From: Escherichia phage YDC107_1
Sequence record: CP025712.1
Length of the DNA stretch: 46,701 nucleotides
Direction: 5' to 3' (one strand)
The notes under the pieces were generated by a model. The model saw nothing but the letters and a program-made list of their open reading frames with translations, ran no database searches and was not told the origin of the DNA. This document shows, piece after piece, positions 1 to 41,193 of this stretch. Within the stretch, counting starts at the first letter, position 1. Every line of letters starts with the position of its first letter. Position numbers and translations under genes: made by a program.

Positions 1-1804
1 CCCGTTATCCACGATGGCTCTTTCTCCGGCACATGCTGCACGGCAGTGATGGCATACGTGCCGTCGTCGTTCTCACGGATACTCACGCAGCGGAACAGGC
101 GCTGGCGCAGCGTCGGCAGCTTAAGCCCCCACACGCTGTATTCAGCAACACCGTCAGGAACCCGGCTCACTTTTACCTTCACGCCGTCGGTGACGGACTG
201 AACCTCCACGCTGACCGGACTCCCCTGCCCGTCAACCAGGCTTATCAGCGTGGTGCCGGAGGCTGGCAGCGTGATTTCACGGTCGAGCGTCAGTGTCCGC
301 GTCTGGCTGTTCACCGCCAGCACGCGCCCGCCGGTGCTGATGCCCGCATAGTCATCATCGCAGATTTCAATGACATCGCCCGGTACATGGCGAAGCCTTC
401 TGCGCCCACGCTGAAGTCCACGGTCTGCGTTTCCAGCAGTTCCGTTTTAATCAGCCACAGCCCGGCTCGGTGTGCCTGCCCCCGACTGGTACAACCAAAG
501 GCATCCATCTTCGTGACGTTACGACCGTAACGGGCAATGGCCTGCGTGTCCTCCACAAGCTCTGTCGCCGTCTCCCAGCCGTTATCCGGGTCAATCCAGT
601 TCACCTCAACGGCATTATGGCGGTCCTTCAGGGCGCTGAAGCTGTAGCGGAACGGCGCGCCATCATCCGGCATCACCACATTACTGCGGTTATAGGTCCA
701 CACCTTATCCGACGGTCGGTCCTGCACGAACGTCAGCGTCTGCCCGTTCCATACCGGCATACAGCGCATCGCCGAGCAGAAATCACTGAGCACATCCCAC
801 GCCTTGCGCTGTGTGGTCAGGTACGCATTACAGGTGATGCGCGGCTCCGTGCCGCCAAAGCCGTCCGGCACTGACTGGTCGCAGTACTGGCCGATGACAT
901 ACAGCGCCCATTTATCCACATCCGCCGCACCAAGACGTTTCCCCATGCCGTAGCGCGGATGGGTCAGCATATCCCACAGACACCAGGCCATGTTGTTGCT
1001 GTATGCCGGTTTAAACGTTCCGTCCCAGATACCGCTGTATTGCCGCGTCTGCGGGTTATAGTTCGACGGCACCTGCAGAATGCGCCCGCGCAGATGATAA
1101 TTACGGCTCACCTGCTGGCTGCCGAACTGCTCCGAATCCACCTGCACGCCGACCAGTGCCGTGTTCGGGTAGCCCTGTTTCACATCGATGATTTCGGTGT
1201 ATGACGACCAGAGCGTTTTGTTCTGCAGCTGGTCTGTGGTGCTGTCCGGCGTCATCCTGCGCATCCGGATATTGAACGGGCGCGGCGGCAGGTTACCCAC
1301 CACCACCGAGGCCAGATACTGCGAGGTGGTTTTGCCCTTAATGGTGATGTCTTTTTCCGTCACCCAGCCACCGTTACGTTGTATCTGAACCAGCAGGCGG
1401 ACTTCCGACGGATTCCGGTCACCCTTTGAGGTGGTTTCCACCAGTGCCTGCACACCGAAGGTAAAGCGCAGTCGGTCAATGTTTGCCGACGTGATGGTCC
1501 GGGTGATCGGCGTGTCGTATTTCACTTCCGTACCCAGCACCGTCTCGGAGCCGGAGGATTCAAATCCCTCCGGCGGTGACTGCTCCTGCTCACCGGCCCG
1601 GAACACCACCGTGACGCCGGATATATTGGTATTCCCCTCACTGTCCAGCACCGGCGTACTGTTCAGCAGCACGCTTTTTAATCCATCCACCGGACCTTCA
1701 ACCGGCCCTTCGCTGATGGCATCGATCACACTCAGCAGCTGCGTGGACTTCAGGTTATCTTTCGCTTCGCGCGGGGTATGCCCCTTACTGCCGCCTTTAC
1801 CCAT
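1..1804 (-). CDS. J: Tail tip host-specificity protein J, N-terminal part; gene runs off the window start; apparent frameshift near 397
   Basis: ORF 311..1804 starts MGKGGSKGHTPREAKDNLKSTQLL and follows lambda J as I recall it. Near 397 the frame breaks (CC where lambda has CCC); the remaining J sequence (…VAEYSVWGLKLPTLRQRLFRCVSIRENDDGTYAITAVQHVPEKEAIVDNG) continues in another frame to position 1. Confidence 0.85.
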
Positions 1805-1864: not shown

Positions 1865-2536
1865 TCAGCGACCAATCACCACAACCTGACCACCGTCCCC
1901 TTCGTCTGCCGTGCTGATCTCCTGAGAAACCACGCGTGACCCCACGCGCATTTCACCGTACAGAACCGGCAGAACATTGCCCTGGGCAACCATGTTATCC
2001 AGTGAGGAGAAATAGGTGTTCTGTTTGCCGTTATCCGTTGTCTGTGTACGGGGAGTTCTGGCTTTCGGTGCCAGCATCTGCGCCACACCACCGAGCACCA
2101 TACTGGCACCGAGAGAAAACAGGATGCCGGTCATACCACCGGCCCCAATGGCTGCCCCCCATGCTGCAAGGGTGGCTCCGGCGGTAAAGAATGATCCGGC
2201 AATGGCGGCAGCCCCCAGGACAATCTGGAATACGCCACCTGACTTGGCCCCGGCGACTCTGGGAACAATATGAATCACAGCGCCATCAGGCAGAGTCTCA
2301 TGTAACTGCGCCGTTAACCCGGACGTGCTGACGTCCCGCCCGGCAATCCGTACCTGATACCAGCCGTCGCTCAGTTTCTGACGAAACACCGGGAGCTGTG
2401 TGGCCAGTGCGCGGATGGCTTCAGCCCCCGTTTTCACACGAAGGTCGATGCGGCGGCCAAATCGTTGCAAATCCCCGTAAAGGCAGATGCGCGCCATGCC
2501 CGGTGACGCCAGAGGGAGTGTGTGCGTCGCTGCCAT
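1865..2536 (-). CDS. I: Tail assembly protein I
   Basis: 223 aa, same length as lambda I; 60-bp gap to J and 103-bp overlap with K as in lambda. Confidence 0.9.
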   Translation of the reverse strand: MAATHTLPLASPGMARICLYGDLQRFGRRIDLRVKTGAEAIRALATQLPVFRQKLSDGWYQVRIAGRDVSTSGLTAQLHETLPDGAVIHIVPRVAGAKSGGVFQIVLGAAAIAGSFFTAGATLAAWGAAIGAGGMTGILFSLGASMVLGGVAQMLAPKARTPRTQTTDNGKQNTYFSSLDNMVAQGNVLPVLYGEMRVGSRVVSQEISTADEGDGGQVVVIGR

Positions 2537-3177
2537 TTGTCGGTATACCTCTCTCGTTTGCTCAGTTGTTCAGGAATATGGTGCAGCAGCTCGCCATCAC
2601 CACAGTAAATGGCGGCATGATTCGGCACCGATGAACCAAAACAGCACAGCAGCACATCGCCCGGTTGTGCTGATGACAACGGCACCTGATACAGCCCTGT
2701 GGCCTCCAGATTATCCAGATAGAGATTCTGACCGTGACGCCACCAGTCATCCTCGCGATGAAAATCCGGCATATCAATCCCCGCCAGATGGTAAGCATCC
2801 CGGAACAGCGTGTAACAGTCCGTCACTCCGTGCTCAAAGCGCCGCCCGGTGAGATACGGCACACAGCGGAATTTATGAATCTCCCCACGGCAGACCAGCC
2901 ACCACGGCAAATCACTCTGCACCTGCAGCCGCCGGTCGGCCTCACTCAGCCAGGGCAGACCACCGGGGTGGCTGTGGACCAGTGCCACAATCTCACCCTG
3001 CATTTCTGCCTGCAGCCAGTCCTCCGGCGACATACGGAAATACGCCTCCGGCTCACCGGAGATATTCACGCAGGGGAAATATCTTTCCCCCTCCGGCGTG
3101 CTTACCACGAAGCCGCACGACTCCGCTGGCGCACATCGCCGGGCGTGCGCCAGAATCGCTGATTCTGTCTGTGTCAT
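2434..3177 (-). CDS. K: Tail assembly protein K (JAB/MPN plus NlpC/P60 domains)
   Basis: HSHPGGLPWLSEAD metal-binding motif and a C-terminal cysteine peptidase-like region. The longest ORF starts at 3177; the lambda-annotated 199-aa form would start at the internal Met near 3033. Confidence 0.85.
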   Translation of the reverse strand: MTQTESAILAHARRCAPAESCGFVVSTPEGERYFPCVNISGEPEAYFRMSPEDWLQAEMQGEIVALVHSHPGGLPWLSEADRRLQVQSDLPWWLVCRGEIHKFRCVPYLTGRRFEHGVTDCYTLFRDAYHLAGIDMPDFHREDDWWRHGQNLYLDNLEATGLYQVPLSSAQPGDVLLCCFGSSVPNHAAIYCGDGELLHHIPEQLSKRERYTDKWQRRTHSLWRHRAWRASAFTGICNDLAAASTFV

Positions 3178-3182
3178 GGGAT

Positions 3183-3881
3183 TTACTGCGAAAGTTTGTT
3201 AATGGAAAGGAAGCCGCCAAAGTTGCCGACGTTATTGCGGAACTTACAACCGCTCAGGCATTTGCTGCATTTATCCTTCGTGATATCGGACGTTGGCTGG
3301 TCATATTCATCCGCGACTGCCGGACCGTGATAACCGCACTCATCACCGCGATAGGTCCAGGTGCAGGTGTTGGCCAGCATGATACGTCCCGGAAAAACGG
3401 CACCGTCCGTTTCCGTCGGCGTGGACAGTACAAAAGAGGCACTCACCGCGCTCAGTTCGCTGCACTGCTCAATGCGCCAGCGGCTGATCACCTCCTGCTC
3501 CGGATCGGCGCCACTGTTTCCGTTGACGAAGTTCACCGCATCCAGAAAACGGGCGTAAACCTTACGCCGGACCACCGTTCCACCGACCAGACTCTGCAGA
3601 TCTTCCGCCATCCCGGTGACCATACCGTACAGGTTAGAAACCGTCAGTGTGGGGCGCGTACTGGTGCCTTTGCCATTCAGTTCAAAACCACTCCCCTGAA
3701 TGGGATACGGCTGATACTGTCGCCCCTGCCAGGTGACCGGCTCACCTTTTTCGTTCTGCTCATTACAGAAAAAATAACGTTCTCCACCGACCTCTGTCAG
3801 GTCGATTTCCCAGAGCACCACGCTGGCCGACTGCTCCGCACGGGTGCATTCATTCAGTGTTTCCTGCCGGATATCCTGCAT
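3183..3881 (-). CDS. L: Tail tip protein L
   Basis: 232 aa, collinear with lambda L; stop overlaps M. Confidence 0.9.
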   Translation of the reverse strand: MQDIRQETLNECTRAEQSASVVLWEIDLTEVGGERYFFCNEQNEKGEPVTWQGRQYQPYPIQGSGFELNGKGTSTRPTLTVSNLYGMVTGMAEDLQSLVGGTVVRRKVYARFLDAVNFVNGNSGADPEQEVISRWRIEQCSELSAVSASFVLSTPTETDGAVFPGRIMLANTCTWTYRGDECGYHGPAVADEYDQPTSDITKDKCSKCLSGCKFRNNVGNFGGFLSINKLSQ

Positions 3882-4210
3882 CAGTTCACCACCTGTTCAA
3901 ACTCTGCGCTGAACTCAACACGCAGCATACTGACCCGCGACGACCATTTTGCGCAGGTCACCTTTATCTGCCGCCACTCATAAGGCGGCGTCCACAGAAA
4001 GGCTTTCCAGCCCCCGTGCTCAGCCAGAAACGACTCCAGCGCCGTGGCCTCCCAACGGGGAACAGAAAGCGTCACGCTGTACGTTTTCAGGTCGGCATTC
4101 AGCCCGGCAGGCGCTCGCTGGGAATAGCCATCACCAAAGCGCACCTTTCTTACAGAAGGGGCCGAAGCCACATCCATACCGGGTTTCACTTTCCAGCGGA
4201 AGGTTTTCAT
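3881..4210 (-). CDS. M: Tail tip assembly protein M
   Basis: 109 aa, MKTFRWKVKPGMDV…, lambda M position between H and L. Confidence 0.9.
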   Translation of the reverse strand: MKTFRWKVKPGMDVASAPSVRKVRFGDGYSQRAPAGLNADLKTYSVTLSVPRWEATALESFLAEHGGWKAFLWTPPYEWRQIKVTCAKWSSRVSMLRVEFSAEFEQVVN

Positions 4211-6786
4211 CGTCCACCTCCGGAGAACAGGCCACCATCACGCATCTGTGTCTGAATTTCATCACGGGCACCCTTGCGGGCCATGTCATACACTGCCTTC
4301 ATCATCTGTGGACCTGGCAGACCATTCGTACCGTCGTTCTGAATCACCACGTTGTTGTTCTGCTCAAACCTGATACCCTCTGAACGCCGCATTTGCGCCG
4401 GACTTCCGGTGCCACCGACATAACCGCCGGTGGCATAGCCGCGCATCAGCCGGTAGAGATTTCCCACGCCAATCCGGCTGGTTGCCTCCTTCGTGAAGAC
4501 AAATTCACCACGGTGAACAATCCCCGCTGGCTCATATTTGCCGCCGGTTCCCGTAAATCCTCCGGTTGCAAAATGGAATTTCGCCGCAGCGGCCTGAATG
4601 GCTGTACCGCCTGACGCGGATGCGCCGCCACCAACAGCCCCGCCAATGGCGCTGCCGATACTCCCGACAATCCCCACCATTGCCTGCTTAAGCAGAATTT
4701 CTGTCATCATGGACAGCACGGAGCGGGTGAAGCTGCGCCAGTTCTGCTCACTGCCGGTCAGCATCGCCGCCATATTCTGTGCAATACCATCAAAGGTCTG
4801 CGTGGCTGCACTTTTTACCTGCGACATACTGTCCGTGGCGCTCTCTTCCCACTCACTCCAGCCGGACTTCAGGCCTGCCATCCAGCTCCCGCGAAGCTGG
4901 TCTTCAGCCGCCCAGGTCTTTTTCTGCTCTGACATGACGTTATTCAGCGCCAGCGGATTATCGCCATACTGTTCCTTCAGGCGCTGTTCCGTGGCTTCCC
5001 GTTCTGCCTGCCGGTCAGTCAGCCCCCGGCTTTTCGCATCAATGGCGGCCCGTTTTGCCCGTTGCTGCTGTGCGAATTTATCCGCCTGCTGCGCCAGCGC
5101 GTTCAGGCGCTCCTGATACGTAACCTTGTCGCCAAGTGCAGCCAGCTGGCGTTTGTACTCCATCGTCTCATCTTTATGCGCCAGCAGGGATTTCTCCTGT
5201 GCGGACAGCTGGCGACGTTGTGCCGCCTCCTCCAGTACCGCGAACTGACTTTCTGCCTTCCACAAATCCCGGCGCTGCTGGCTGATTTTCTCATTTGCTC
5301 CGGCATGCTTCTCCAGCGTCCGGAGTTCAGCCTGAAGCGTCAGCAGGGCAGCATGAGCACTGTCTTCCTGACGATCGCCCGCAGACACCTTCACGCCGGA
5401 CTGTTTCGGCTTTTTCAGCGTCGCTTCATAATCCTTTTTCGCCGCCGCCATCAGCGTGTTGTAATCCGCCTGCAGGATTTTCCCGTCTTTCAGTGCCTTA
5501 TTCAGTTCTTCCTGACGGGCGGTATATTTCTCCAGCGGCGTCTGCAGGCGTTCGTAAGCCTTCTGCGCCTCTTCGGTATATTTCAGCCGTGATGCCTCAG
5601 ACTCGACCCAGTCCTTTGCTGCCATCTCTCTGGCCTTTTCAAGATCGGCCTGCAACGTGGCGGCTGAAAGCCCAAGTTGCGCATTCGCTCTGTCCTCCCA
5701 TGCTCCCCGGAGATTGGCAAGAAATGCTGAGGTTTTACCGCGCCGGTGGCTCCGGCTCTGATACCACTGCCATTTTTTGTCCGCCTCATCAAAAGCCTTT
5801 TCTGCTTTCTCCAGCATTCCCTGGGCAGTGTCCGGGCGACCAATATCCAGCACCGAATCCCACATGGATTTGAATGCCCGTGCTGTCCTGTCTGCCCAGG
5901 TCTCCAGCGTGCCCATGTTCTCTTTCAGGCGGCGGGTCTGGTCATCAAACCCTTTCGTTGCGGCCTCGTTCGCCGCCTGCAATGCCCCGGCTTCATCTCC
6001 GGAACGCTGCAACTGAGCAACATACGCAATCTGCTCCGCCGTCACGTTATGGAACTGACGTGCCATCGCTGTCAGTCCCGACGTCGGGTCTGTGGTCAGC
6101 TTCCCGAAGGCTTCAGCGACCTTGTCCACCTCCACGCCGGATGCAGAGGAGAAACGCGCCACACTCTGGCTGATCGCCTCAAACTGCTCACCACCACGCA
6201 CACCTGCATTCACCAGCGCCGTCAGTGACTCGCTGGTCTGGTTAAACGTCAGCCCTGCCGCCTGCCCGGCTCTGGACAGGACCAGCATACGATCTGCCGT
6301 CAGTCCCGCCTGATTGCCGGAAAGGACCAGCGTTTTGTTGAAATCGGACAGGGTTGAGTCCCCCTGATACCAGGCATACGCCAGCGCACCGGTCGCCACC
6401 GCCAGCGAGGTGGCCCCGACCATCGGCAGGGTGATCGCACCGGCAAGCCCCCTGAACATGGGGATCATCCCGCCGAAGGAGTCCTTAACCTGACCACCCT
6501 GTTGCAGCAGGATCAGCCACGGACTTTGCCCGCCTGCAAGCTGCGTGGCCACGTCGGTGAACTGTGCAGGCAGCATACGCATGGCAGCTTTATACTGCCC
6601 GACGGAAATCCCCGCTTTCTGTGCAGCCAGTGCCTGTCGGCTCAGCGACTGTTCAACGACTGCCGCTGTTTTTTTCGCATCACTTTCCGTACCGGAAAAA
6701 TGACGCCTGACTCTGGCCATCTGCTCGTCAAATCTGGCCGCATCCAGACTCAAATCAACGACCAGATCGCCTACCGGTTCAGCCAT
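4207..6786 (-). CDS. H: Tail tape measure protein H
   Basis: 859 aa, lambda H-like along its length, Ala/Gln-rich coiled-coil middle, Gly-rich C-terminus. Confidence 0.92.
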   Translation of the reverse strand: MAEPVGDLVVDLSLDAARFDEQMARVRRHFSGTESDAKKTAAVVEQSLSRQALAAQKAGISVGQYKAAMRMLPAQFTDVATQLAGGQSPWLILLQQGGQVKDSFGGMIPMFRGLAGAITLPMVGATSLAVATGALAYAWYQGDSTLSDFNKTLVLSGNQAGLTADRMLVLSRAGQAAGLTFNQTSESLTALVNAGVRGGEQFEAISQSVARFSSASGVEVDKVAEAFGKLTTDPTSGLTAMARQFHNVTAEQIAYVAQLQRSGDEAGALQAANEAATKGFDDQTRRLKENMGTLETWADRTARAFKSMWDSVLDIGRPDTAQGMLEKAEKAFDEADKKWQWYQSRSHRRGKTSAFLANLRGAWEDRANAQLGLSAATLQADLEKAREMAAKDWVESEASRLKYTEEAQKAYERLQTPLEKYTARQEELNKALKDGKILQADYNTLMAAAKKDYEATLKKPKQSGVKVSAGDRQEDSAHAALLTLQAELRTLEKHAGANEKISQQRRDLWKAESQFAVLEEAAQRRQLSAQEKSLLAHKDETMEYKRQLAALGDKVTYQERLNALAQQADKFAQQQRAKRAAIDAKSRGLTDRQAEREATEQRLKEQYGDNPLALNNVMSEQKKTWAAEDQLRGSWMAGLKSGWSEWEESATDSMSQVKSAATQTFDGIAQNMAAMLTGSEQNWRSFTRSVLSMMTEILLKQAMVGIVGSIGSAIGGAVGGGASASGGTAIQAAAAKFHFATGGFTGTGGKYEPAGIVHRGEFVFTKEATSRIGVGNLYRLMRGYATGGYVGGTGSPAQMRRSEGIRFEQNNNVVIQNDGTNGLPGPQMMKAVYDMARKGARDEIQTQMRDGGLFSGGGR

Positions 6787-7608
6787 ACCGGACTCCTCCT
6801 GCGATCCCTTCTGATACTGTCATCAGCATTACGTCATCCTCCGTCATGTCCGCCACATCCGGGGAAGCGGGGATAACTTCATTCCCGTCCGGGCCAAAAC
6901 GAACGCCTCCGGCAAGCCCTGCCGCTTTCTGCATCAGCACATCATCTTCAGGCTCTTCGTCAGCCTCGCGCCGGTTCAGCAGACTGAAATCCAGCGGATG
7001 CATCTCCGGATCGCTGAAAAACAGGCTGAGCACGGTGTACGTCAGCCCGGAAAAGTGCATATCCAGCAGAACATCATGAAAATAATGGGTACTGTAAAAG
7101 CGGTGCCAGTCGGCATACTCCGTGGATGACATCCCGGCAAGCATGGCGCGCCAGTCGGGTCGCCCCATCTCACGCGCCAGTTTCAGGGCAAAACTCAGCT
7201 CACCGTCGAACACTTTCCCGCAGAAACAGGCTCTGCAGGCCCGGCGTCCTCTGCCTGTTCAGGAGCATTATTCACCACAAACTCATACATACCGGACAGC
7301 CGGTACACCACGTTTTCAGCATGAGAAATTGCCTCTGTGGGCCAGGTGGTAAGCACTTCCTGCTCAATCTGTTTAACGGCTTCATTCATGGAAGGCAGCT
7401 TTGTCTTCTTCGGATGGTTATGCCACAGGGACATCGCCACCAGAAACGCGCCGGTTCTGATGGCGTCTTCCACAGTAAACTTCCGGTTGCTGTCGGATTC
7501 TGCCTGCTGTTTCATCAGAGCGAGATGCTCAATACGCTGCAGGGCTGACAGTTCAGAAAGCGTGACGGTCACGCCGTTATATTCAAATGATTCGGTTTTC
7601 AGGAACAT
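6779..7608 (-). CDS. GT: Tail assembly chaperone GT, made by programmed -1 frameshift from G into the T frame
   Basis: T-frame ORF 6779..7213 overlaps the G 3' end; slippery heptamer GGGAAAG on the minus strand at 7213-7219. Confidence 0.8.
7195..7608 (-). CDS. G: Tail assembly chaperone G
   Basis: 137 aa lambda G-like; ends just past the slippery site. Confidence 0.9.
   Translation of the reverse strand: MFLKTESFEYNGVTVTLSELSALQRIEHLALMKQQAESDSNRKFTVEDAIRTGAFLVAMSLWHNHPKKTKLPSMNEAVKQIEQEVLTTWPTEAISHAENVVYRLSGMYEFVVNNAPEQAEDAGPAEPVSAGKCSTVS
7213..7219 (-). promoter_or_regulatory. Slippery heptanucleotide G GGA AAG for the G/GT -1 ribosomal frameshift
   Basis: Plus-strand CTTTCCC at 7213-7219 is GGGAAAG on the coding strand, inside the last G codons. 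Confidence 0.7.
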
Positions 7609-7623
7609 CGCTGACTCTCCGGA

Positions 7624-8364
7624 TTAACTGGCGGTGACGGTGATTTCTGCAACCGCAGCAAACTCACCATTACCGGATACGACCGGAATGTTGACCTTGC
7701 CTGCAGCAACGCCGTTCACGGTGATGGTCATACCACTGACCGACACGGTGGCTTTTGTTTTATCCGAAGACACCGCACGGAAGCTCTTGTCGGTTACGCC
7801 TTCCGGCTGGAAGGCCACGGTCAGCGTGGTGCTCTGTCCTTTCACTACGGACGCACTGGCTGGCGTTACCGTCATGCCGGTTGCCGCCGTCACCGTACTG
7901 CGATCTTCAGCCATCGACGGGCGTCCCACATTGGTGACCTTCACCGTGCGGGTGATCACTTCCTTCGCCGTCACCGCTTTACCGATACTGCTGACCCAGC
8001 CACGGAACACATCGACCGTGCCGTTAGGAAAGCGGATTTTATAGGCACGGGTATCACCTTCATTAAACCACGCCAGCAGCGCCTGCTGCCCCTGCTCTCC
8101 GGGCATCCACGCCAGCGTGAAGCTGGTATCTCCGGCAGATTTCTGCCCCTGCCCGGTCGCAGTCCAGTCCGCATCTTCATCATCGAGATAGCTGTCGTCA
8201 TAGGACTCAGCGGTCAGTTCGCCGGGCGTCAGGTCTTTAACTTTTGCCAGACGCGACCAGTCAACGTCTGAAAGCGGGTTCGCATAAGGGTCACCGTTCC
8301 CCTTATAAACCCACAGTGTGGTCCCGGCACCTTTCACCGGCATTGTTGGATTTGGTACAGGCAT
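7624..8364 (-). CDS. V: Major tail tube protein V
   Basis: Lambda V-like from [16 protein letters not shown] (246 aa); the ORF-track start at 8394 is an upstream in-frame Met; C-terminal Ig-like domain. Confidence 0.9.
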
Positions 8365-8371
8365 AGCGTCC

Positions 8372-8767
8372 TCACATTTCATAGGTAATGACATAAGTCA
8401 GATCGGCTGAACTCCACAGGCCCGCATCATCGTCGCGCCGGTAGTCATAGCCACTGGCCACCATACTGGTGATCAAATCTGACAGTGCCGGGATATCGCT
8501 CATCACCGGATAAATCCGGGACTCCATCCACGAATCCAGCTCTGAATCCGGCACCTGAGCAGGCAGGAAAACTTCAATATGCAGCTCCGCCTGCCAGGTA
8601 TCGCTGTCCAGCTCTTCGCCCGTGTATTCAGCGCCGGTGAGATAAACGGCAATTGCCGGAAAATCTTCCTCATCAAAAACAGCGGGGCGACCATCAAAAA
8701 GCGTCGCCCCGGTGTCATGCTTCTCCAGTGCATCCAGTACGGCTGCACGGAGTTCAGTATGTTTCAT
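8372..8767 (-). CDS. U: Tail terminator protein U
   Basis: 131 aa, lambda U-like, 7-bp gap to V. Confidence 0.9.
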
Positions 8768-9342
8768 CGCTTTATTACCATTCTCAGTTGATGCTGCAGC
8801 GCATAGCCCAGCTCTTTCGGAAGACGCTCACGCCGTATCCGCTCAATATTCTGTTTAAACGCCGTGGTCAGCGGCACCGCCATCGGGATTTTCACCACAT
8901 CAATGGGGTAACGGTTTTTCCCGGCCACACGCTGCATGACATGCCACCGGCCATTTTTCAGTTGCTGAATAAACGCGCCGGGAATACGACGGTTACCCAC
9001 CACAAGCACGCTGCCGCCACCTTTCAGGGATGAACGCTGCCCTTTTTTACGACGCCTGCGGCGGGACAGGACAACCCGCGCATTACCCAGCTTGATTACG
9101 GGCAAATCCCCCCGGTTAACTTTGATTCTGGCCTGCGGATTTTTGACCGTGGCCCTTTTCAGCCTGGCCCTTTCCTTTACCAGTTTCCGGCGTACCTTTG
9201 TCTCACGGGCAACCTGTGACGCCGACTGCGATATCGCGGATGAAGCAACGCGGTTAATGGCCATTGCGGCGGCACCAGGCACCGCCGTTTTGCTGATACG
9301 GCTGAGGTTTTCAACGGCCTGCTCAAGACCTTTTATGGCCAT
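8764..9342 (-). CDS. Z: Tail completion protein Z
   Basis: 192 aa lambda Z-like; 4-bp overlap with U. Confidence 0.9.
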   Translation of the reverse strand: MAIKGLEQAVENLSRISKTAVPGAAAMAINRVASSAISQSASQVARETKVRRKLVKERARLKRATVKNPQARIKVNRGDLPVIKLGNARVVLSRRRRRKKGQRSSLKGGGSVLVVGNRRIPGAFIQQLKNGRWHVMQRVAGKNRYPIDVVKIPMAVPLTTAFKQNIERIRRERLPKELGYALQHQLRMVIKR

Positions 9343-9353
9343 ACATCCCCCTT

Positions 9354-9707
9354 TCAGCGACGACGGTTAACGGCAGGCGGCACACCACGCCCAAGCCAGA
9401 GATGACAACTTCCGCCATCATCCGGCGAAATCCGGTCTATCCAGAAGTTTTCCTCACCGATGGTCAGCGTGTCGCCGCGCCGCAGCTGCCGCACATCATC
9501 AGTCCGGACAAACAGGGACGGGCTGGAGCCTTCAACGCGCACGCCCTGTCCGGCATAGCTGATATTTTCAGGGTCATCAAAAACACCACGTATCACCGCA
9601 CCGGACTGCTCACCGGATGTCATGGTGGCTGACGTTCCCATGTACCCGCGTATTGTTTCATCGGCGCGGGCAATGGCAGCATCGAACAGGTTATCGAAAT
9701 CAGCCAC
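9354..9707 (-). CDS. FII: Head-tail joining protein FII
   Basis: 117 aa lambda FII-like. Confidence 0.9.
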   Translation of the reverse strand: MADFDNLFDAAIARADETIRGYMGTSATMTSGEQSGAVIRGVFDDPENISYAGQGVRVEGSSPSLFVRTDDVRQLRRGDTLTIGEENFWIDRISPDDGGSCHLWLGRGVPPAVNRRR

Positions 9708-9718
9708 AGCGCCTCCCG

Positions 9719-10117
9719 TTATTGCATTCTGGCCAGGCCACGTTCTGTCATTTCGGCTGCCACACCGGCAGAGACACGGAACGCCGTTCCCGGCAGCACA
9801 AATGCCACAGGTTCATCCCGCGTGGCGTGAAGTGCATCGGTATGCAGCGTCACCAGTGCCACTACCGTGACCAGTTCAGCCGTATCATGAATCACGGTAT
9901 CCGGCTGCGCTGATACCACCTCATTTTCATGCCCGGTCAGCACATTTTCCGGGCTGAGAGATGTGTCCTGACCGGCAGCGTCATCCGTGTCATCAAGCTC
10001 CTCTTCCAGCTCTGCCACACGGAGTGCCAGTTCTTCTTTCGTCCCCGTCAGGCTGACATCACGGTTCAGTTGCTCACCCAGCACCTGAAGACGGGCAATC
10101 AGTTCATCTTTCGTCAT
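9719..10117 (-). CDS. FI: DNA packaging protein FI
   Basis: Lambda FI-like from MTKDELIARLQ (132 aa); ORF-track start at 10156 is an upstream in-frame codon. Confidence 0.85.
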   Translation of the reverse strand: MTKDELIARLQVLGEQLNRDVSLTGTKEELALRVAELEEELDDTDDAAGQDTSLSPENVLTGHENEVVSAQPDTVIHDTAELVTVVALVTLHTDALHATRDEPVAFVLPGTAFRVSAGVAAEMTERGLARMQ

Positions 10118-10158
10118 GGACTCCTCCACAGAGAGAAAATGGCCCCGAAGGGCCATGA

Positions 10159-11184
10159 TTACGCCAGTTGTACAGACACGAATTCATCAGGGTCAGCCAG
10201 CAGCATCAGCGGTGCTGACTGAATCATAGTGAACTCACGCGCCGGATCGCCGGTGGTCACCCAGTTTTTCGGGTAACGGGCAGAGGCGTTAATGCCTTCG
10301 CGCTGTGCGTCCGCATCCTGAATGCAGCCATAGGTGCGCAGACCGCGTGCCTGAGTGTTCCCCAGCACCATCGTGTTGTCCGGCAGGAAGTTCTTTTTGA
10401 TGCCGTTTTCCACGTACTGTCCGGAATACACGACGATGGCCACATCGCCATACATTCCCTTATAGGACACCGCTTTGCCCAGGTCTTTCACCGCTGTCTC
10501 CAGCTCGGAATGAGAGCCGCGACGGGTATCCAGCTTATCCTTGACGGCCTTGAAGGAACGGAACAGCGCCCAGCCTTTCGGATCAAACACGATGATATTC
10601 ACCACACCGCTGGCGTTCAGCGCGTAGGCTTCGATATCGTCGGTCGGGTCATACGTGGACTTGTCACGCTGGCTCCACTGCGTGCCGCCGGACTGCGTGA
10701 TGTTATTCGCCGCACTGCGGCCCATATCCACTTCAACCGGATCGAAGGCTTCACCGGTCATGGTGTATTTGCCCTTAAGCACGGCAGAAACGGCCTGCAT
10801 CTCTTCGACCTGGGCAATGGCCAGCTCTTCATCACGCATGTTCTGCATGATGATGCGACGGCGGCGGTAAGCCGGGTCCGCCAGATTCTGCGGATCTTCA
10901 TCCGGCAGGCGACGCAGGGTCATCTGCGGATTCACCTCATGCTTGGGTTTGACATATCCCGGCGTAAATTCAGAGGTGGAGCCGCCACGGGAACGGATAA
11001 CCTCACCGGAAACAATCGGCGAAACGTACAGCGCCATGTTTACCAGTCCCGGAATTTGTGAGAGATAGACTTTCTCCGTGGTGAAGGGATAGCTCTCACG
11101 GAAAAAGAGACGCAGAAACAGCGGATCAAACTTAAATTTCTGCTCATTTGCCGCCAGCAGCTGGGCGGTTGTGTACATCGACAT
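10159..11184 (-). CDS. E: Major capsid protein E
   Basis: Lambda E-like from MSMYTTAQLLAANEQKF (341 aa). Confidence 0.92.
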   Translation of the reverse strand: MSMYTTAQLLAANEQKFKFDPLFLRLFFRESYPFTTEKVYLSQIPGLVNMALYVSPIVSGEVIRSRGGSTSEFTPGYVKPKHEVNPQMTLRRLPDEDPQNLADPAYRRRRIIMQNMRDEELAIAQVEEMQAVSAVLKGKYTMTGEAFDPVEVDMGRSAANNITQSGGTQWSQRDKSTYDPTDDIEAYALNASGVVNIIVFDPKGWALFRSFKAVKDKLDTRRGSHSELETAVKDLGKAVSYKGMYGDVAIVVYSGQYVENGIKKNFLPDNTMVLGNTQARGLRTYGCIQDADAQREGINASARYPKNWVTTGDPAREFTMIQSAPLMLLADPDEFVSVQLA

Positions 11185-11239
11185 AAAAAAATCCCGTAAA
11201 AAAAGCCGCACAGGCGGCCTTTAGTGATGAAGGGTCAGG

Positions 11240-11572
11240 TTAAACGATGCTGATTGCCGTTCCGGCAAACGCGGTCCGTTTTTTCGTCTCATCGCTGGCA
11301 GCCTCCGGCCAGAGCACATCCTCATAACGGAACGTGCCGGACTTGTAGAACGTCAGCGTGGTGCTGGTCTGGTCAGCAGCAACCGCAAGAATGCCAACGG
11401 CAGCACCGTCGGTGGTGCCATCCCACGCAACCAGCTTACGGGTGGAGGTGTCCAGCATCAGCGGGGTCATTGCAGGCGCTTTCGCACTCAATCCGCCGGG
11501 CGCGGTTGCGGTATGAGCCGGGTCACTGTTGCCCAGCGGCTGGTAATGGGTAAAGGTTTCTTTGCTCGTCAT
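11240..11572 (-). CDS. D: Head decoration protein D
   Basis: Lambda D-like from [12 protein letters not shown] (110 aa). Confidence 0.9.
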
Positions 11573-11581
11573 AAACATCCC

Positions 11582-12187
11582 TTACACTGGTGTATTCAGC
11601 AAATCGTTAACGGCATCAGATGCCGGGTTACCTGCAGCCAGCGGTGCCGGTGCACCCTGCATCAGACGATCCAGCGCAGTATCACTGCGCGCCTGTGCAC
11701 TCTGTGGTGCTGCGGCCAGAATGCGGCGGGCCGTTTCCACGGTCATTCCGGGGGTTTCTGCCAGAACGCGCGCCTGTTCTTCGCGTCCGTGAGCCTCATC
11801 ACAGTTGAGGATCCCCATAATGCGGCTGTTTTCTGCCGCAACCGCTGCGGTGATCTGCGCGTTCACGTCCGGCTGCGCCGCGCTGGCGTTTTCGCCCTCC
11901 GTCGCTTGCACCACGTCAGTAACGTCAGCCTGCGAAGCGGTGGCTGAAACAGTTGTTGATTGAGTCTCTTTGGTCATTCGCCCTCCTGAGAGACGGGATT
12001 TACGTGCATCCAGTGCATCACGCATGACGGTGATCGCATCGGTGCTGTTAACAAGTTCATCAGCCAGTCCGGCATCAATGGCCTCCTGACCGCTGTACAC
12101 TGCAGCCTCGGTATCCAGCACAGTCTGCACGGACAGGCCGGTATATGCCGACACCTTCTGCGCAAACATCTGGCGGGTTGCATCCAT
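11582..12187 (-). CDS. nu3: Scaffolding protein Nu3 (in-frame internal start within C)
   Basis: Internal Met MDATRQMFAQ gives the 201-aa C-terminal product, as for lambda Nu3. Confidence 0.7.
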   Translation of the reverse strand: MDATRQMFAQKVSAYTGLSVQTVLDTEAAVYSGQEAIDAGLADELVNSTDAITVMRDALDARKSRLSGGRMTKETQSTTVSATASQADVTDVVQATEGENASAAQPDVNAQITAAVAAENSRIMGILNCDEAHGREEQARVLAETPGMTVETARRILAAAPQSAQARSDTALDRLMQGAPAPLAAGNPASDAVNDLLNTPV

Positions 12188-12881
12188 CCGGGACTGCAGT
12201 GTCTCCCGGACGTCATCCGGAAGATGGCTGTAGGGGTTGCCATCCACCTTATGGCTGCCGCTGTAAATCAGCGTGATTTCCACGCCCTGTTTCTCCAGCG
12301 CAGCACCGTAATTACTGTGAGCCATCATGACGCCGATGGAGCCTGTCCGGGCGGTCTGCGTGACCAGACGCCGGGAGGCGGCGCTGGCAAGCAGCTGACC
12401 TGCACTGCAGTTCATGTCGTTGGCCAGCGCCCATACAGGTTTTATGTCACGCACGCGGGCGATGATGTCAGCGCAGTCAAATGCCCCCGCCACCATCCCG
12501 CCGGGCGTGTCCATATCGAGCAGAATGCCGTCCACCATCGGGTCGCTGGCAGCCTGTTGCAGACGGGCGATAATGCCGTTGTAACCGGTCATCCCCGAAT
12601 ACGGCTGCAGCGCCCGCGTCCGGCTGACCAGCGTGCCGGAAACCGGCAGCACGGCGATGCCGTTCATGACCTGATAACTGCGGGCCTGTCGTGGTCCGTC
12701 ATCATCACCGGATAACGCCAGCGTCGCGGGTGCCTCCGGGGCAGTCAGGCTGTCACCGGACACCGCATCTGTCAGGCGGCTGATCCCAAGCTGGCCTGCA
12801 AGCGCACAAAAGAAAACCCGCGCATAGGCGGGTTCAAGCATCAGCGGCTCATTAAAGGCCATGCTGGCAATATGCGGGAGA

Positions 12882-12901
<20 letters not shown>
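11582..12901 (-). CDS. C: Capsid assembly protease C
   Basis: Lambda C-like from a GTG start (V)TAELRNLPHIASMAF, 439 aa; ClpP/S49-like fold. Confidence 0.88.
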
Positions 12902-16582
<3,681 letters not shown>

Positions 16583-16608
<26 letters not shown>

Positions 16609-17128
16609 TCAGCAACCCCGGTATCAGTTCATCCAGCGCGGCTGCTTTGTTCATGGCTTTGATGATATCCCGTTTCAGGAAATCAATGTGCCGGTTATCC
16701 AGCTCAGGAAAACGTCGCTGCACCGACAGAGGAATACCGTCGAGAATACTGGATATTTCCCTTGCTATACGCGACAGCACGAAAGTACAGAATGCGGTTT
16801 CCACCACTTCAGCCGATTCTTTGGCATTTTTCAGTTCCTGCGCCGTCGCCTGAGCACGAGTCAGGCGATGGCGCTCAAATTCAAGTGTTCCGGGGTGAAG
16901 ATCTGCCTCGCTGGCCAGCCGTAATTCTTCAACCTCCCGGCGCAGCTTTTCGTTCTCAATTTCAGCATCCCTTTCGGCATACCATTTTATGACGGCGGCA
17001 GAGTCATAAAGCACCTCATTACCCTTGCCACCGCCTCGCAGAACGGGCATTCCCTGCTCCTGCCAGTTCTGAATGGTACGGATACTCGCACCGAAAATGT
17101 CAGCCAGCTGCTTTTTGTTGACTTCCAT
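16583..17128 (-). CDS. nu1: Terminase small subunit Nu1
   Basis: 181 aa lambda Nu1-like with N-terminal HTH (MEVNKKQLADIFGASIRTIQNWQEQGMPV); 26-bp overlap with A. Confidence 0.9.
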
Positions 17129-26233: not shown

Positions 26234-26876
26234 TTAATAATGCGGTTCGATTTAAGCTCAGACATCGCGACTTAATTAAAAGCCAGCGTTCTTTATAATC
26301 TTGTCTCCAGCTATCAATAGATATATTCAGTAGAAAACTCAGATGCCTGTCCTGTTCTCTCTCATCAACTGCCTCAGCACACGTAAGTTCTGATTTAACC
26401 TGTTGTGCCGCGTAATAAATCAATTTCCGCATGGCTTTTTTCGTGGAGGCCTTCATTTTTTTAAAGCCGCCCCCCGAATGAGCAACCAGAAAATCAAGCC
26501 ATAACCACTGACAAACAATCACATCATTGTTGTAATCAGGCTTGCATCCGTAGCAATAATAAAGCCAGGCTGATTCCTCGTTATTCAACTGACCAATAGC
26601 CCTGCGCCAGCTGGCGCTCTGAAAATCAATATCAGTGAGCAACATTGATGATTGTTTAAATGTTTTCCCCTGATGGAATCTAACCGGCTCAGCAGGAACG
26701 GACACTTCGTATGAGTTATCATCCCCCACACTGATTGACCGGACTGGTTTATTGTTAAACCGTCCTGATCTACCGAGACGCATCTGCTCAAGCTGGACCT
26801 CCAGAATGCCACGCTGGCGATAATGAACATCAGCCAATGCCGTAGAGACGCAGCTGCGTATATACTCAAGCTCCAC
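26166..26876 (-). CDS. Hypothetical early protein directly downstream of cro (regulator or Q-like candidate)
   Basis: 236 aa from a GTG start with SD AAGGAG; contains CYGC…C cysteines; family not recognised. Confidence 0.5.
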   Translation of the reverse strand: MELEYIRSCVSTALADVHYRQRGILEVQLEQMRLGRSGRFNNKPVRSISVGDDNSYEVSVPAEPVRFHQGKTFKQSSMLLTDIDFQSASWRRAIGQLNNEESAWLYYCYGCKPDYNNDVIVCQWLWLDFLVAHSGGGFKKMKASTKKAMRKLIYYAAQQVKSELTCAEAVDEREQDRHLSFLLNISIDSWRQDYKERWLLIKSRCLSLNRTALLNAAEKRSEIIKRHRAGSAILPL

Positions 26877-27087
26877 GCTTACGACTCTCCTTAATCGACT
26901 GCTTTACCCGCCGAGTTGTAAAGTCACTCTTCAGCTTATAAGCAGTACGAACTTCAATATCGCTTTGCCGCAATGAAGGAATCTCTCCAGCGGTTAACCA
27001 TTGGTAAACAGCTCCGGGTGTTACACCTACCCCTGCCGCTGCTTTTTCTACACTGCCAAAATGGCGAATAAGTTCTTCTGGTTTCAT
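26866..27087 (-). CDS. cro: Cro-like HTH repressor
   Basis: 73 aa from MKPEELIRHFGSVEKAAAGVGVTPGAVYQWL; divergent from the repressor gene. Confidence 0.7.
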   Translation of the reverse strand: MKPEELIRHFGSVEKAAAGVGVTPGAVYQWLTAGEIPSLRQSDIEVRTAYKLKSDFTTRRVKQSIKESRKRGA

Positions 27088-27118
27088 GTTGTTATTATAA
27101 ACAATAAACAACAATTAA

Positions 27119-27156
27119 AGCCAGCTATAATAAATAAATTTTATAGCCAGCTATAA
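27119..27156. promoter_or_regulatory. Operator region between cro and cB: two AGCCAGCTATAA repeats
   Basis: Repeats at 27119-27130 and 27145-27156; the second lies in the near-palindrome TTATAGCCAGCTATAA; AT-rich promoter context. Confidence 0.5.
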
Positions 27157-27178
27157 GAAGATCATTTATGATTACAGT

Positions 27179-27775
27179 ATGAAAACACGAGGCGAACGAC
27201 TGAAAGCACGCCGTTTAGAGATGAAGCTGACGTTGCGAGAAGTTGCTGAGGCTGTCGATATCTCTATAGCAGGCGTCCAAAACTTAGAACGTGGCGACGT
27301 AATGCCGTCACTGGAGATAGGTATTGCCCTGGCTAAGTGCTTACGCAAGCCAGTGCATTGGGTGCTATATGGGACAGAATATGACCCTGATCGCATTCCT
27401 GTTATTGGCACAACTGAAAGTGGGCCGGATGAAGAGTGGAAGCCGGGACAGGTTCCAAATACTGAGCGATTCCTGCCATTCATCAGCCAGCGCAATACTG
27501 TGTATGCGTTAACTATCAGCAATCTTACGCAGGGAAACTATCAGCCAGGCGATTTTCTCCTGGTCGATTCTGCGCTGGAACTGGTCCCCGGCGAGGATGT
27601 TCTGGTTCGTGATACTGCAGGAAATATCACTATCCAGCGCCTGGCCCGTTTTGATGATGAAAATTACTATCTGGATGGAACAAACTCACAACGCGCCATC
27701 TTCAGGAAAAGCGATCTTGAATTTGTTCACCAAATAGTCGGAACGATCAAATCATTCATGGTTGAGGGTAGATGA
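27179..27775 (+). CDS. cB: Prophage repressor (N15 CB / lambda CI analogue): HTH plus degenerate LexA-like C-terminal domain
   Basis: 198 aa; N-terminal HTH LTLREVAEAVDISIAGVQNLERG. Confidence 0.8.
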   Translation: MKTRGERLKARRLEMKLTLREVAEAVDISIAGVQNLERGDVMPSLEIGIALAKCLRKPVHWVLYGTEYDPDRIPVIGTTESGPDEEWKPGQVPNTERFLPFISQRNTVYALTISNLTQGNYQPGDFLLVDSALELVPGEDVLVRDTAGNITIQRLARFDDENYYLDGTNSQRAIFRKSDLEFVHQIVGTIKSFMVEGR

Positions 27776-27869
27776 CTTAATACGGGGTTTATTGTTTGCT
27801 GTAAATCTGGTTTAATGCAGGGCATATGTTCTGTGGGTTGACTCAGGTTACAGCAGCAGAAAAAAGACG

Positions 27870-27905
27870 AAAAAAAACCCGAGTCGGCAAACTCGGGTCC
27901 TTTTC
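27870..27905. terminator. Bidirectional rho-independent terminator after the repressor gene
   Basis: A-run, CCCGAGT-CGGCAAA-ACTCGGG, then T-run. Confidence 0.5.
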
Positions 27906-28020
27906 AGGAAGCAGCCACAACAACGCGACAGATTCCGTCAATTCAAGATGCGTTTATTGTGGCTGCTCCTGCGGATTTTTTCAACCCGAAAAAACATAAT
28001 TCGCATGGAATGGCTAAAAA

Positions 28021-31000
28021 ATGACATTAAACGATTTCTATGCGGATCGCTTTGGCAGCGATCCGTTCTCGCTAATTGAAGCAGCACGGGATGAACTAAC
28101 CGAGCTGGCACAGATGGCTGGTATCAACTGGCCTGCCTGTTCCGACAACATCCAACTCAACCCTCGCGGGGGGGTTGAGCGTTACTCTTCATACAATAAA
28201 ACATCTCCAGAAGCTCTCGAAAAGAGCCTGAAAGGACGCGTAGAAATTTACTCCAGGCTGGAACACAGCAAAGGGATTGATTACCCGTTCATTAACTTCG
28301 TCCATAAAGGCAGCGATGCTGGCTCATGGAGCGGTTTCTCCTTCCTGTTTTCTGAATATCGCCGTGAGCAACAACGGAATAATGCGACCGTGGTCGCACA
28401 ACCGGAAGAAGAACGGGAAAGAATAGAACGTCAGGCCGAAGCACGTCGTCGCCGTGAAGAACAAAAACGAATTAATGACCTGAAAAACAACCAAATGGAC
28501 CATGAACGTTTGCTGGGATGGCTGGCATTCCACAGCGCGTGGGAACATGCTCAGGCTGAAGACGGCTCATGGCCATATGCGATTAAAAAAGGTATTCGTG
28601 ACGTTTTTAGTTCATGTGATGTGCGTCGCGTGACCAGTCACGACAGTGCGAAATGGAGCCGGGGGCCAACCACATATATGGCTATCCCTCTGGCTCACCT
28701 GGACGGTCGTTATGATGGTCGTATTGTGGGTTGGCAGCGAATCGACAAACAAGGTGGGAAATACCAGACCAGCGCAGTAACCAGCGGCGATTTCGTCGGT
28801 GCCTGCTTTGTTATCGGTGAGCTGAAAGGGGCGCAAAACATCGCTGTTACAGAAGGTTTTGCTACTGGTGCATCCATCTGGCTTGCCACGAAAAAAGATA
28901 AACGCTTTGACGCGGTGGTTGTCGCTGTATCCGCTAACAACATGGTTCATGTTGTGGAACAACTGGTAAACATGTACCCGGCGGCAAAAATCACCTGCGC
29001 ACTGGATAATGACCGGAAATCTGCCACAGAAGGAAAAGGGAATACCGGCCTGCGGACTGGCTATGAAATCTTATCGAAATTCAACGATGTCCGCTGCGTC
29101 TACCCAACTTTTGAAGACGATCCGCAAATGGAGTGCAGTGACTTCAACGACCTGCACAAACTACGTGGACTTCGTGAAACAGCACGTCAACTATTTGCAA
29201 CAGCAAACCGCCTGAAAACCGGCACTGATTTGCTATCTCTGACGCTCAACCGCCTGAAGACAATTAAGCGGGATAACCGTCGTACTTTTGCCAAAGAGCT
29301 GCTGAGAGCGGTGGATATTGGCATGCTAACCTGTCCGGTTCCTAACAGTCCGTCAGATTTGTTTAACATGTTCTGTATCGTTCTGCGTGAAATGGGGCTG
29401 GAAAATATCTATCGCGCTACGGTAAAAGACCACATTGCCCGTCGCCTGAATAAAAAATGCCGTATTGCCCAGGCTCCGCGCTCTTTCAGCGAACGCATAA
29501 CTGATCCCAATAAACGCCCTCAACATATCACCTATAAGCGTTTTGAAACTTCGGTAATGACCTATGACGTCCTGAAGTACGTGCAATCACTACAGGGGAT
29601 CGTCATCGTTCGTGCTGGTATGGGTTCCGGCAAATCTACTGGATTGTTACGACCGTTAATGCATAGCTCAGAACGCGGTATCTCTGTAGCTCACCGTGTT
29701 TCCCTTATTGGTGGCCTGTGGGAAATGATGACTGAAGGAAAAGGTGTAAAAGCCGATATCCTGCACTATCAGGACCCTGGCTATCAGGAAATGGCTCCAT
29801 ACGCCAGTAAACTGACCATCTGCATAAACTCGATTGTTAAAAACTGCTGGCAACCGTTGATGCGCCAGCACGACTATTTTGGCTTTGACGAGGCCACACA
29901 AGGGCTACGTGCCGTTCTTTCCGGTCGGGCTATGGAAAACCCAGTGGCTGTATTCAATACGCTAATTGACGCGCTGGCCAGAACGGAACAACACCCAATA
30001 ATGGTGGATGCTGATGCGAACGATCTGCTGGTTGACCTGGCTGAACTGGCTATGAAACGCCGTGAAGAACTAGGTTTACCGGCATGGCTGCAGATCCACG
30101 TAATTGAATTACCTGTTGATGTTCGCAACCGCGAAACAGGTGAGCCAATCCGGGTTTTTTATACAGAAAAAGATCGCATCATGACCGAGGTGGTGAAAGC
30201 TGTATCGGATGGCGAAAAAATCATGTTGGCCACCGACAGCTCCACCTTTGCAGAAGATGTGACCGCCACCCTGAGAATGCATTTTCCTGGTAAGAAATTT
30301 CTGTGCGTAAACCAGAAAAGCAAACAGGATGAAGAAGTCGATGCTTTTACCAACCAGCCAAAAGTAATGGTGATGAAATACGATGGACTGATCTACAGCC
30401 CGTCGATTTCCTCCGGGGTGTCATTTGAGAAAAAACATTTTGACCGTCATTTCGGCATGTTCTGCGGTGAAGTTGTGCCCAGCGACGCAGTGCAAATGCT
30501 ACGCCGCGACCGTACAGCAAAAGAATTTATTATCGGCTTTGATAAAGCTCGTGCAAAACGCGAGACTGATCCGCAAAAAATAGAACGTGCATTCGCCCAG
30601 GCATTACTTGCTACCGCAGGCATGAACGGTGAACTGACGGATGTCGTTTTCGATGGCGACCGTATATCAATGGGGGTGGCCAATACCGACTTTACCAGGA
30701 TGAAAATTAAAGCTGCCGCTATTGAAGCGTCTGCGCGTAACGACTACGCCAGCAACATGATCTGCATCATGCACAGCGACGGTTATAAGGTATCGCCATT
30801 AGCTACTGATTATGCCGCAAATGATTTTGGTAAAGAGCTGCGCAAAGAAGCGCGGGATATTGTGTGGGAACAGACGCTGGATCTGCACCTCAATACAGAG
30901 ACACCAGAAGAATCAGAGCGTGAAGAACTACTAAAAAAACGTGCGCTAACGCTTGAAGAACAGGCAAAACTTGTCCGCTGGGATATTGAGAACGAACTGA

Positions 31001-32004
31001 AACTACCGGTTGAAGAAGGCACGCTGAAATTCTATTTCGATGGTGCTCGAGACAAAATTCGCCGTTATGAAACGATGCTGCTTGATGAAGTCACAGCCCG
31101 TCGTTATGACCGTGAAGAAGCGGCTATCAATTTTACATACGCATACCGCCAGACCGGACAGTGGCAATATTTTGTGGTGACCGCGATGACACGCGAGCAG
31201 GCTGATGATGTATTCAAAGCGAAATTTCCGGGAATAATCGACTACAAGGTAAAAGCCACCCCAGCTGTTGAGGTCGGCATGCGCGGATTCTATGCGCTTA
31301 AATCAGCAACTCTCCGGCAGTATTTTATCGACTGCGGTATCGACCCTGAAACTATGACTGGCGAAGCGACGCAGGAACGCCTTAAGTTCGCTCGAGATAA
31401 TCTCATGACAGCAGAACGCCGTGACCTGTTGAATAACGTTCTGCGCATTGGTGGTTTTATGACACCAAAAGGGAAGCCTAAAGTGCCGGAAGCACTGTTT
31501 AAAAACATCTGCGACTCTCTCGGCCTAAAAACAGGAAAACGTCGCGGCAGAGATGGCGATAAGCGCCCGACATTGCGTTTTGTTGAGCCTGAGTCTGTAG
31601 CATTTATGCTTGATATTCTTACGCAACGTCAGGAGGACGGTATGACGTTGAAAGCTCGCAAGGCAGAAAAATCAACGACCGAAGTGGATCGCGATTTGTC
31701 ATTAAATATATATATGAATGGTGAAACGCGATCCACAAACACGGAGGAACAGGATCCCCCTCGTTCAGCTATATCACAGGCTTTGGCTGTATTGCCGGTG
31801 GCTGTTCCTGAGTCCTGGGCGATGAGTGCTCTGCCATCAGCCGAACTGGAATCTATCAGGGGGTGGTCAGTTGACAGCATCGCATACACGTTTGCAGCCC
31901 TTTATATGACTGAGTTTATGGATTTGCTGTCCGGTCATGAGATTAAGTTGCTGAAGGCTTTTATAGGCCCACGACATGCCAGCGATGAGTTTTGTGTAGT
32001 TTAG
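28021..32004 (+). CDS. repA: Replication protein: Toprim primase fused to a helicase/NTPase (N15 RepA / P4 alpha-like)
   Basis: 1327 aa; Toprim motifs (VTEGFATGASIW, ALDNDRKSATEGKG); Walker A GMGSGKST; Walker B-like FDEATQ. Confidence 0.9.
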   Translation: MTLNDFYADRFGSDPFSLIEAARDELTELAQMAGINWPACSDNIQLNPRGGVERYSSYNKTSPEALEKSLKGRVEIYSRLEHSKGIDYPFINFVHKGSDAGSWSGFSFLFSEYRREQQRNNATVVAQPEEERERIERQAEARRRREEQKRINDLKNNQMDHERLLGWLAFHSAWEHAQAEDGSWPYAIKKGIRDVFSSCDVRRVTSHDSAKWSRGPTTYMAIPLAHLDGRYDGRIVGWQRIDKQGGKYQTSAVTSGDFVGACFVIGELKGAQNIAVTEGFATGASIWLATKKDKRFDAVVVAVSANNMVHVVEQLVNMYPAAKITCALDNDRKSATEGKGNTGLRTGYEILSKFNDVRCVYPTFEDDPQMECSDFNDLHKLRGLRETARQLFATANRLKTGTDLLSLTLNRLKTIKRDNRRTFAKELLRAVDIGMLTCPVPNSPSDLFNMFCIVLREMGLENIYRATVKDHIARRLNKKCRIAQAPRSFSERITDPNKRPQHITYKRFETSVMTYDVLKYVQSLQGIVIVRAGMGSGKSTGLLRPLMHSSERGISVAHRVSLIGGLWEMMTEGKGVKADILHYQDPGYQEMAPYASKLTICINSIVKNCWQPLMRQHDYFGFDEATQGLRAVLSGRAMENPVAVFNTLIDALARTEQHPIMVDADANDLLVDLAELAMKRREELGLPAWLQIHVIELPVDVRNRETGEPIRVFYTEKDRIMTEVVKAVSDGEKIMLATDSSTFAEDVTATLRMHFPGKKFLCVNQKSKQDEEVDAFTNQPKVMVMKYDGLIYSPSISSGVSFEKKHFDRHFGMFCGEVVPSDAVQMLRRDRTAKEFIIGFDKARAKRETDPQKIERAFAQALLATAGMNGELTDVVFDGDRISMGVANTDFTRMKIKAAAIEASARNDYASNMICIMHSDGYKVSPLATDYAANDFGKELRKEARDIVWEQTLDLHLNTETPEESEREELLKKRALTLEEQAKLVRWDIENELKLPVEEGTLKFYFDGARDKIRRYETMLLDEVTARRYDREEAAINFTYAYRQTGQWQYFVVTAMTREQADDVFKAKFPGIIDYKVKATPAVEVGMRGFYALKSATLRQYFIDCGIDPETMTGEATQERLKFARDNLMTAERRDLLNNVLRIGGFMTPKGKPKVPEALFKNICDSLGLKTGKRRGRDGDKRPTLRFVEPESVAFMLDILTQRQEDGMTLKARKAEKSTTEVDRDLSLNIYMNGETRSTNTEEQDPPRSAISQALAVLPVAVPESWAMSALPSAELESIRGWSVDSIAYTFAALYMTEFMDLLSGHEIKLLKAFIGPRHASDEFCVV
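28383..28398. repeat. 16-bp core TGCGACCGTGGTCGCA, copy 5, inside repA
   Basis: Outer bases not complementary (16 of 18); mirrored copy at 45080-45097. Confidence 0.5.
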
Positions 32005-32021
32005 AGGGTAGAAGCGTGGGA

Positions 32022-32288: not shown

Positions 32289-32290
32289 AA

Positions 32291-32686: not shown

Positions 32687-32704
32687 GTTGTGGAAGGAGT
32701 ATTT

Positions 32705-33120: not shown

Positions 33121-33143
33121 AACACGCGCCAGCGTGTTTTTTT
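33121..33143 (+). terminator. Rho-independent terminator ending a short untranslated transcript upstream of the anti-repressor operon
   Basis: AACACGC-GCCA-GCGTGTT followed by a T-run. Confidence 0.45.
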
Positions 33144-41191: not shown

Positions 41192-41193
41192 TT

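Follow-up and report, generated by a model that had tools for sequence, protein, structure and literature searches.

Three kinds of described system bear on the locus analyzed here. The tip attachment protein of phage lambda, gpJ (also the central tail fibre J), is encoded downstream of H-M-L-K-I in the tail module and carries the Pfam domains FNIII-A_GpJ and Phage-tail_3. A real frameshift in J would abolish infective virions in phages with lambda-type tails. The telomere phages (linear plasmid-prophages) N15 (NC_001901) and PhiR46_1 (PV340565.1) are organized in the order telL, TelN, RepA, cB, Q, lysis genes, cos, head and tail genes. Lastly, long-read assemblies of linear replicons can contain hairpin read-through duplications, palindromes centered on the telomere resolution site; long-read assemblers are documented to continue a contig beyond a hairpin along the other strand, as an artefact (PMC12460055).

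All positions and strands given below refer to the window, by which we mean the full stretch of 46,701 nt. Its left 17 kb hold a lambda-type virion module on the minus strand, running from Nu1 to J, in which each gene between 1865 and 17128 is full length and in one frame. The right part contains a protelomerase gene beside its palindromic target site, the telO core, as well as genes for a RepA-type primase/helicase, a cB-type repressor and a Q antiterminator. The initial annotation had treated the element as lambda. This identification was ruled out, as the right half matches N15-like plasmids with protelomerase, and the element is an N15-type telomere phage-plasmid, that is, a linear plasmid-prophage, bearing a lambda-type virion module. 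The features are as follows.

1..17, minus strand: end of J within the window, in a third frame; J runs past the window edge, with about 560 codons missing
18, single C on the plus strand: second contraction in J (CC in relatives)
19..398, minus strand: next part of J, read in a second frame and spanning about residues 472-596 (translation and tblastn in frame -2, 96.8-97.7% identity)
396..397, CC on the plus strand (coding GG): first contraction in J (a run of three in all relatives)
311..1804, minus strand: 5' ORF of J, 497 aa, comprising 471 aa of J and then 26 aa out of frame, with the stop at 311-313
1865..17128, minus strand: intact lambda-type virion module with I, K, L, M, H, T, G, V, U, Z, FII, FI, E, D, C, B, W, A and Nu1
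26776..36742: left arm of the palindrome, 9,967 nt, with intact cB, RepA and TelN
27179-27775: cB-type repressor, 99.5% identical to that of PhiR46_1, with HTH_3 and Peptidase_S24 matches
28021-32004, plus strand: RepA primase-helicase, 1,327 aa, 94.8% identical to the PhiR46_1 primase
34650-36551, minus strand: TelN protelomerase, with the Pfam domains TelK_N, muzzle, catalytic and stirrup (all four TelK/ResT domains)
36731..36754: telO core, CCCATTATACGCGCGTATAATGGG, palindrome centre at 36742/36743, matching the N15 telRL core at 23 of 24 positions
36743..46701: right arm of the palindrome, which repeats the left arm as reverse complement over 9,959 nt

The gene order of the element is that of PhiR46_1 and N15. 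With PhiR46_1 it shares 95.7% DNA identity over 81% of window 26000-37500, whereas the identity to N15 is only about 76% over 33% of the same query. The virion module of the window is lambda-like. In contrast to both, the window is without the 3' half of J, lom, stf, parAB and the telR end, and has a 10-kb reverse-complement duplicate of the telL-side arm instead. The ParA/ParB (SopAB) genes of PhiR46_1 are located beyond J, i.e., outside the left end of the window. Two further observations concern the layout of these elements. Just past Nu1, in a cos-proximal location, the window has a direct repeat of 172 nt with 93% identity (17388-17559 and 18339-18509). Two close relatives with identical RepA (L129 and L130) carry an IS605-family TnpB gene (402 aa, at 15932-17140 in their own coordinates) between small genes and telN, which is absent from both the window and PhiR46_1.

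The J gene itself is clearly of lambda type. The 497-aa ORF matches FNIII-A_GpJ (E=2.4e-41) and Phage-tail_3 (E=1.2e-35), the same Pfam domains as in lambda gpJ, and the gene order H-M-L-K-I-J is kept. The N-terminal 596 residues are collinear with lambda gpJ, with a DNA identity of 96.1%. At the amino acid level, residues 1-471 are 99.8% identical to J of Escherichia coli YDC107, the closest relative, and 97.9% identical to PhiR46_1 J, and residues 473-596 are 96.8% identical to the latter. In the frame of window:1-398:-, J continues after the first contraction with RLRHVPGDVIEICDDDYAGISTGGRVLAVNSQ. The differences from lambda are that J in the window is split by two one-base contractions, that its C-terminal part of about 560 codons lies outside the window, and that it sits in an N15-type plasmid-prophage. 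In the homologues compared, J is one ORF of 1131-1165 aa with GGG at the first site. The window as written does not contain a single uninterrupted J ORF of about 1130-1165 aa, because the frame is broken at 396-397 and at 18 and the gene is cut by the window start.

On the coding (minus) strand, the first site reads GAAGGCTTCGCC in the window and GAAGGGCTTCGCC in lambda and in every relative that was compared; against YDC107, GAAGGGCTTC has become GAAGGCTTC, with one base of the run absent. Measured against the lambda reference, the change is a pure one-base contraction without any added substitution. At the second site, GAGGCC has become GAGCC on the coding strand, which puts the final 17 nt of the window into yet another frame. 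The extra base is present at both sites in lambda, YDC107 and PhiR46_1, as well as in five more loci that could be aligned there. Given the uncontracted form in all compared relatives, the alignments indicate that neither contraction is a chance feature. The initial annotation had described J as interrupted by a single-base contraction near position 397, with the frame terminating at 311, and the CC at 396-397 and the ORF at 311..1804 bear this out. The lambda string that it gave, GAAGGGCTGCGCC, is one base off the reference. Its statement that J continues in another frame to the window start is correct as far as position 19 and fails beyond it, where the contraction at 18 shifts the frame once more; the alignment contains two contractions in J where only one had been described.

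The other end of the window provides an internal control for this class of change. Positions 26776-46701 form a giant palindrome of 19.9 kb that is self-complementary about telO. Comparison of the arms shows 0 substitutions and 8 one-base differences, all of them homopolymer contractions in the right arm (at 37106, 37391, 40998, 41877, 44732, 44792, 46106 and 46394, in runs of 3-6 bases), which break the second copies of TelN, RepA, cB and one small gene. As the arms represent the same DNA, the differences between them must be errors. A draft assembly from the same plasmid lineage (GCA_031952465.1, here L133) provides an independent comparison. It differs from the left arm by 3 mismatches and 0 gaps over 9,967 nt, and from the right arm by the same 3 mismatches and 8 gaps. 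The 8 contractions are thus shown to be wrong by both the left arm and L133, and errors of exactly the class seen in J do occur in this contig, 0.80 of them per kb of right arm. The initial annotation had already placed the J contraction in the same class as the right-arm differences, and had judged a sequencing error to be at least as likely as a pseudogene; the first of these points is confirmed, and the second is strengthened by the 8 errors exposed by the left arm and L133.

A palindrome of this kind is what results when a long-read assembler follows the DNA through a covalently closed hairpin telomere. It differs in nothing material from the hairpin read-through duplications of other long-read assemblies, except that the duplicated arm here also measures the indel error rate. 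Reads that map to several places are passed over by the polishers Quiver, Arrow and Medaka, so that an arm present twice may escape correction. We also considered whether the window might be circularly permuted, in which case the missing part of J would be found at the opposite end. This was rejected, as that end is the reverse complement of 26776-36742 and not J. Among public records, four N15-like "plasmids" have 1.3-2x unit length: NZ_CP019258.1 (75 kb), CP088430.1 (91.5 kb), CP088738.1 (77 kb) and NZ_LT906558.1 (61.5 kb). Those of the oversized N15-like records (61-92 kb) that were checked list two protelomerase genes, and the same hairpin read-through duplication is probably present in all four.

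At 0.80 contractions per kb, 1.45 would be expected in the 1,804 nt of J, where two were observed; the probability of at least one is 0.77 and that of at least two is 0.43. The location of the two is less easily attributed to an even spread. Both lie less than 400 nt from the window start, and for two events distributed uniformly over the 36.7-kb non-duplicated part, the probability that both fall into the first 400 nt is 1.2e-4. Of the ten contractions, two fall within the first 400 nt and eight within the read-through arm. Matches to PhiR46_1 proteins revealed no frame breaks in the 36-kb interior: each of the proteins concerned has its match in one frame between 1805 and 36742, at full length in all but three cases, and frame breaks relative to PhiR46_1 proteins occur only in J and in the right arm.

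A similar picture emerges from the comparison with YDC107. Window 1-9500, from the 5' half of J to FII, aligns with 25.4-34.9 kb of NZ_CP025707.1, an integrated prophage at the Qin locus of the YDC107 chromosome. There are 0 substitutions over this stretch, and the sole differences are one-base indels. Where YDC107 is without a base, the ORFs of the window are intact and the YDC107 genes are annotated as frameshifted. In the region of the YDC107 RefSeq chromosome that corresponds to window 8276-11198 (L002, 9.0-12.6 kb), single bases are absent at 13 or more sites at which the window is intact; V, FII and E are annotated as frameshifted there, and FI is annotated as two CDSs. These base losses are of the same error class, in a genome that is labeled "complete". 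The 0 substitutions imply that a telomere phage and a chromosomal prophage swapped a lambda-type tail module very recently. If the host contains such an identical repeat, this could also be the cause of the contig ending inside J.

The contracted form of the first site is absent from polished genomes. Not one of 5,426 complete E. coli genomes contained a 30-mer with the contraction, compared with 2,012 places, in 1,466 of these genomes, for the uncontracted 31-mer, which rules out that the contraction is a common natural variant. A contracted 22-mer was likewise absent from the GTDB representative genomes. An exact look-up of the 497-aa J fragment gave no hit, and neither PLSDB, the phage collection nor the complete E. 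coli genomes yielded a near-identical match over the full length of the window. Three other public sequences carry the contraction, namely two IMG/VR contigs (L056 and L123, the latter from IMG taxon 2917865565) and one ENA metagenome contig (L124, from OQEB01), and all three have further frameshifts. L124, likewise an N15-like plasmid, has about 10 frameshifts in 14 kb, and in L123 the stf gene is split as well. L056 (IMGVR_UViG_3300003862_000001) is lambda itself, with 0 mismatches over J and 15 indel events in 10.7 kb. Lambda J is known to be intact, so that L056 is a telling case of the same miscall in a genome with an intact gene. The local haplotypes at the J site differ among the window, L056 (lambda-type), L123 and L124, and descent of the contraction from a common ancestor of the four carriers was therefore ruled out. 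Runs of at least 3 bases occur at about 37 per kb, which suggests that any given run would be hit in roughly 2-3% of assemblies with about 1 error per kb. At such a frequency, a small number of coincidences is to be expected across very large collections.

L056 deserves a brief description of its own. Over lambda coordinates 13828-21343, it has 4-nt deletions at 19235-19238 and 19783-19786, two 2-nt insertions at 14912/14913 and an additional G at 14266, besides the J contraction at 16914. The contig probably represents lambda DNA from a laboratory or control sample that was subjected to error-prone sequencing. L056 and L124 also share a second contraction, in gene L (lambda 13828; GATCAGCCGC to GATCAGCGC), within sequence that matches lambda perfectly in both contigs; this may be due to chance, to a systematic miscall or to common ancestry.

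From the assembled sequence and its relatives, we infer, with a probability of about 0.92, that the J frameshift is a long-read consensus error, in which a short homopolymer was called one base too short, rather than a mutation that the element carries. Such an error should appear as the loss of one base from a run, with no substitutions, and should recur in the same assembly at places for which the correct sequence is available; both are seen here. Some observations speak against this reading. The runs have only 3 bases at the main site and 2 at the second, fewer than most runs in which homopolymer errors are typically seen, and the occurrence of the same contraction on four local haplotypes could point to a real slippage hot spot. 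According to the latter idea, the GGG run in GAAGGGCTTC would be prone to recurrent -1 slippage, as a phase-variable or mutation-prone site that switches J off in lambdoid and N15-like prophages. The run does lie within an imperfect inverted repeat, GAAG..CTTC, as can be read directly from the sequence. However, three G in a row are a poor substrate for slippage, the site is contracted in none of its 2,012 occurrences in complete E. coli genomes, and the three other carriers all have additional frameshifts, one of them being lambda with its intact J. With coincidences expected at the frequency estimated above, we regard a hot spot as highly improbable.

Somewhat less improbable, but still very unlikely, is a real pseudogene, in which one base would have been lost at each of the two sites, leaving the element without a functional tail tip and persisting solely as a plasmid. 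Phage-plasmids can persist without virion production, the frameshifts are present in the sequence as given, and the contraction recurs in three other public contigs. However, signs of decay or relaxed selection are absent, both in terms of substitutions (0 relative to YDC107 in 9.5 kb) and of defects elsewhere in the module, the other matched genes being intact. Two independent real frameshifts within 380 nt, with none elsewhere in 36 kb, would be an improbable combination, whereas changes of this class are demonstrably artefactual in this very contig, at 0.8 per kb, and the contracted form is missing among the 2,012 copies of the site in complete genomes. The least credible of the alternatives is a functional change of frame, by programmed ribosomal frameshifting or in a naturally split J. 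There is a precedent, since lambda-type tails use a programmed -1 frameshift at G-T. However, many homologues have an uninterrupted J of 1131-1165 aa with GGG at the site, no slippery heptamer is present at the first site, and a second frameshift follows 380 nt further on; the intact homologues effectively refute this reading already.

The preferred explanation, a consensus error, can be put together as follows. The window is all or part of a contig from an N15-like linear plasmid-prophage, in which the assembler passed around the closed hairpin telomere, so that the last 10 kb repeat the preceding 10 kb as reverse complement. At the poorly supported ends, i.e., in the 10-kb read-through arm and the first 400 nt, bases would have been dropped in homopolymer runs, and two such dropped bases would have split J into three frames. 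The two J contractions would then share their cause with the errors of the right arm, and low read support at the ends of the sequence would be the reason for the clustering, on the assumption that the window start is a contig end.

Taken at face value, the contig would be annotated as a defective phage-plasmid in which the host-specificity gene is broken, as are the second copies of telN and repA. What the evidence shows is an intact telomere phage of the N15-like type, misrepresented through hairpin read-through and homopolymer errors that were left unpolished. The loss of infective virions that the initial annotation foresaw for a real frameshift probably does not apply to this element. The split of J is very probably not a real feature; in itself it matters little, and the practical value of the case lies in the caution that it suggests for annotation. 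Whenever an assembly continues around a hairpin telomere, comparison of its two arms yields a built-in estimate of the per-base error rate, which can be used to judge apparent pseudogenes elsewhere in the same contig.
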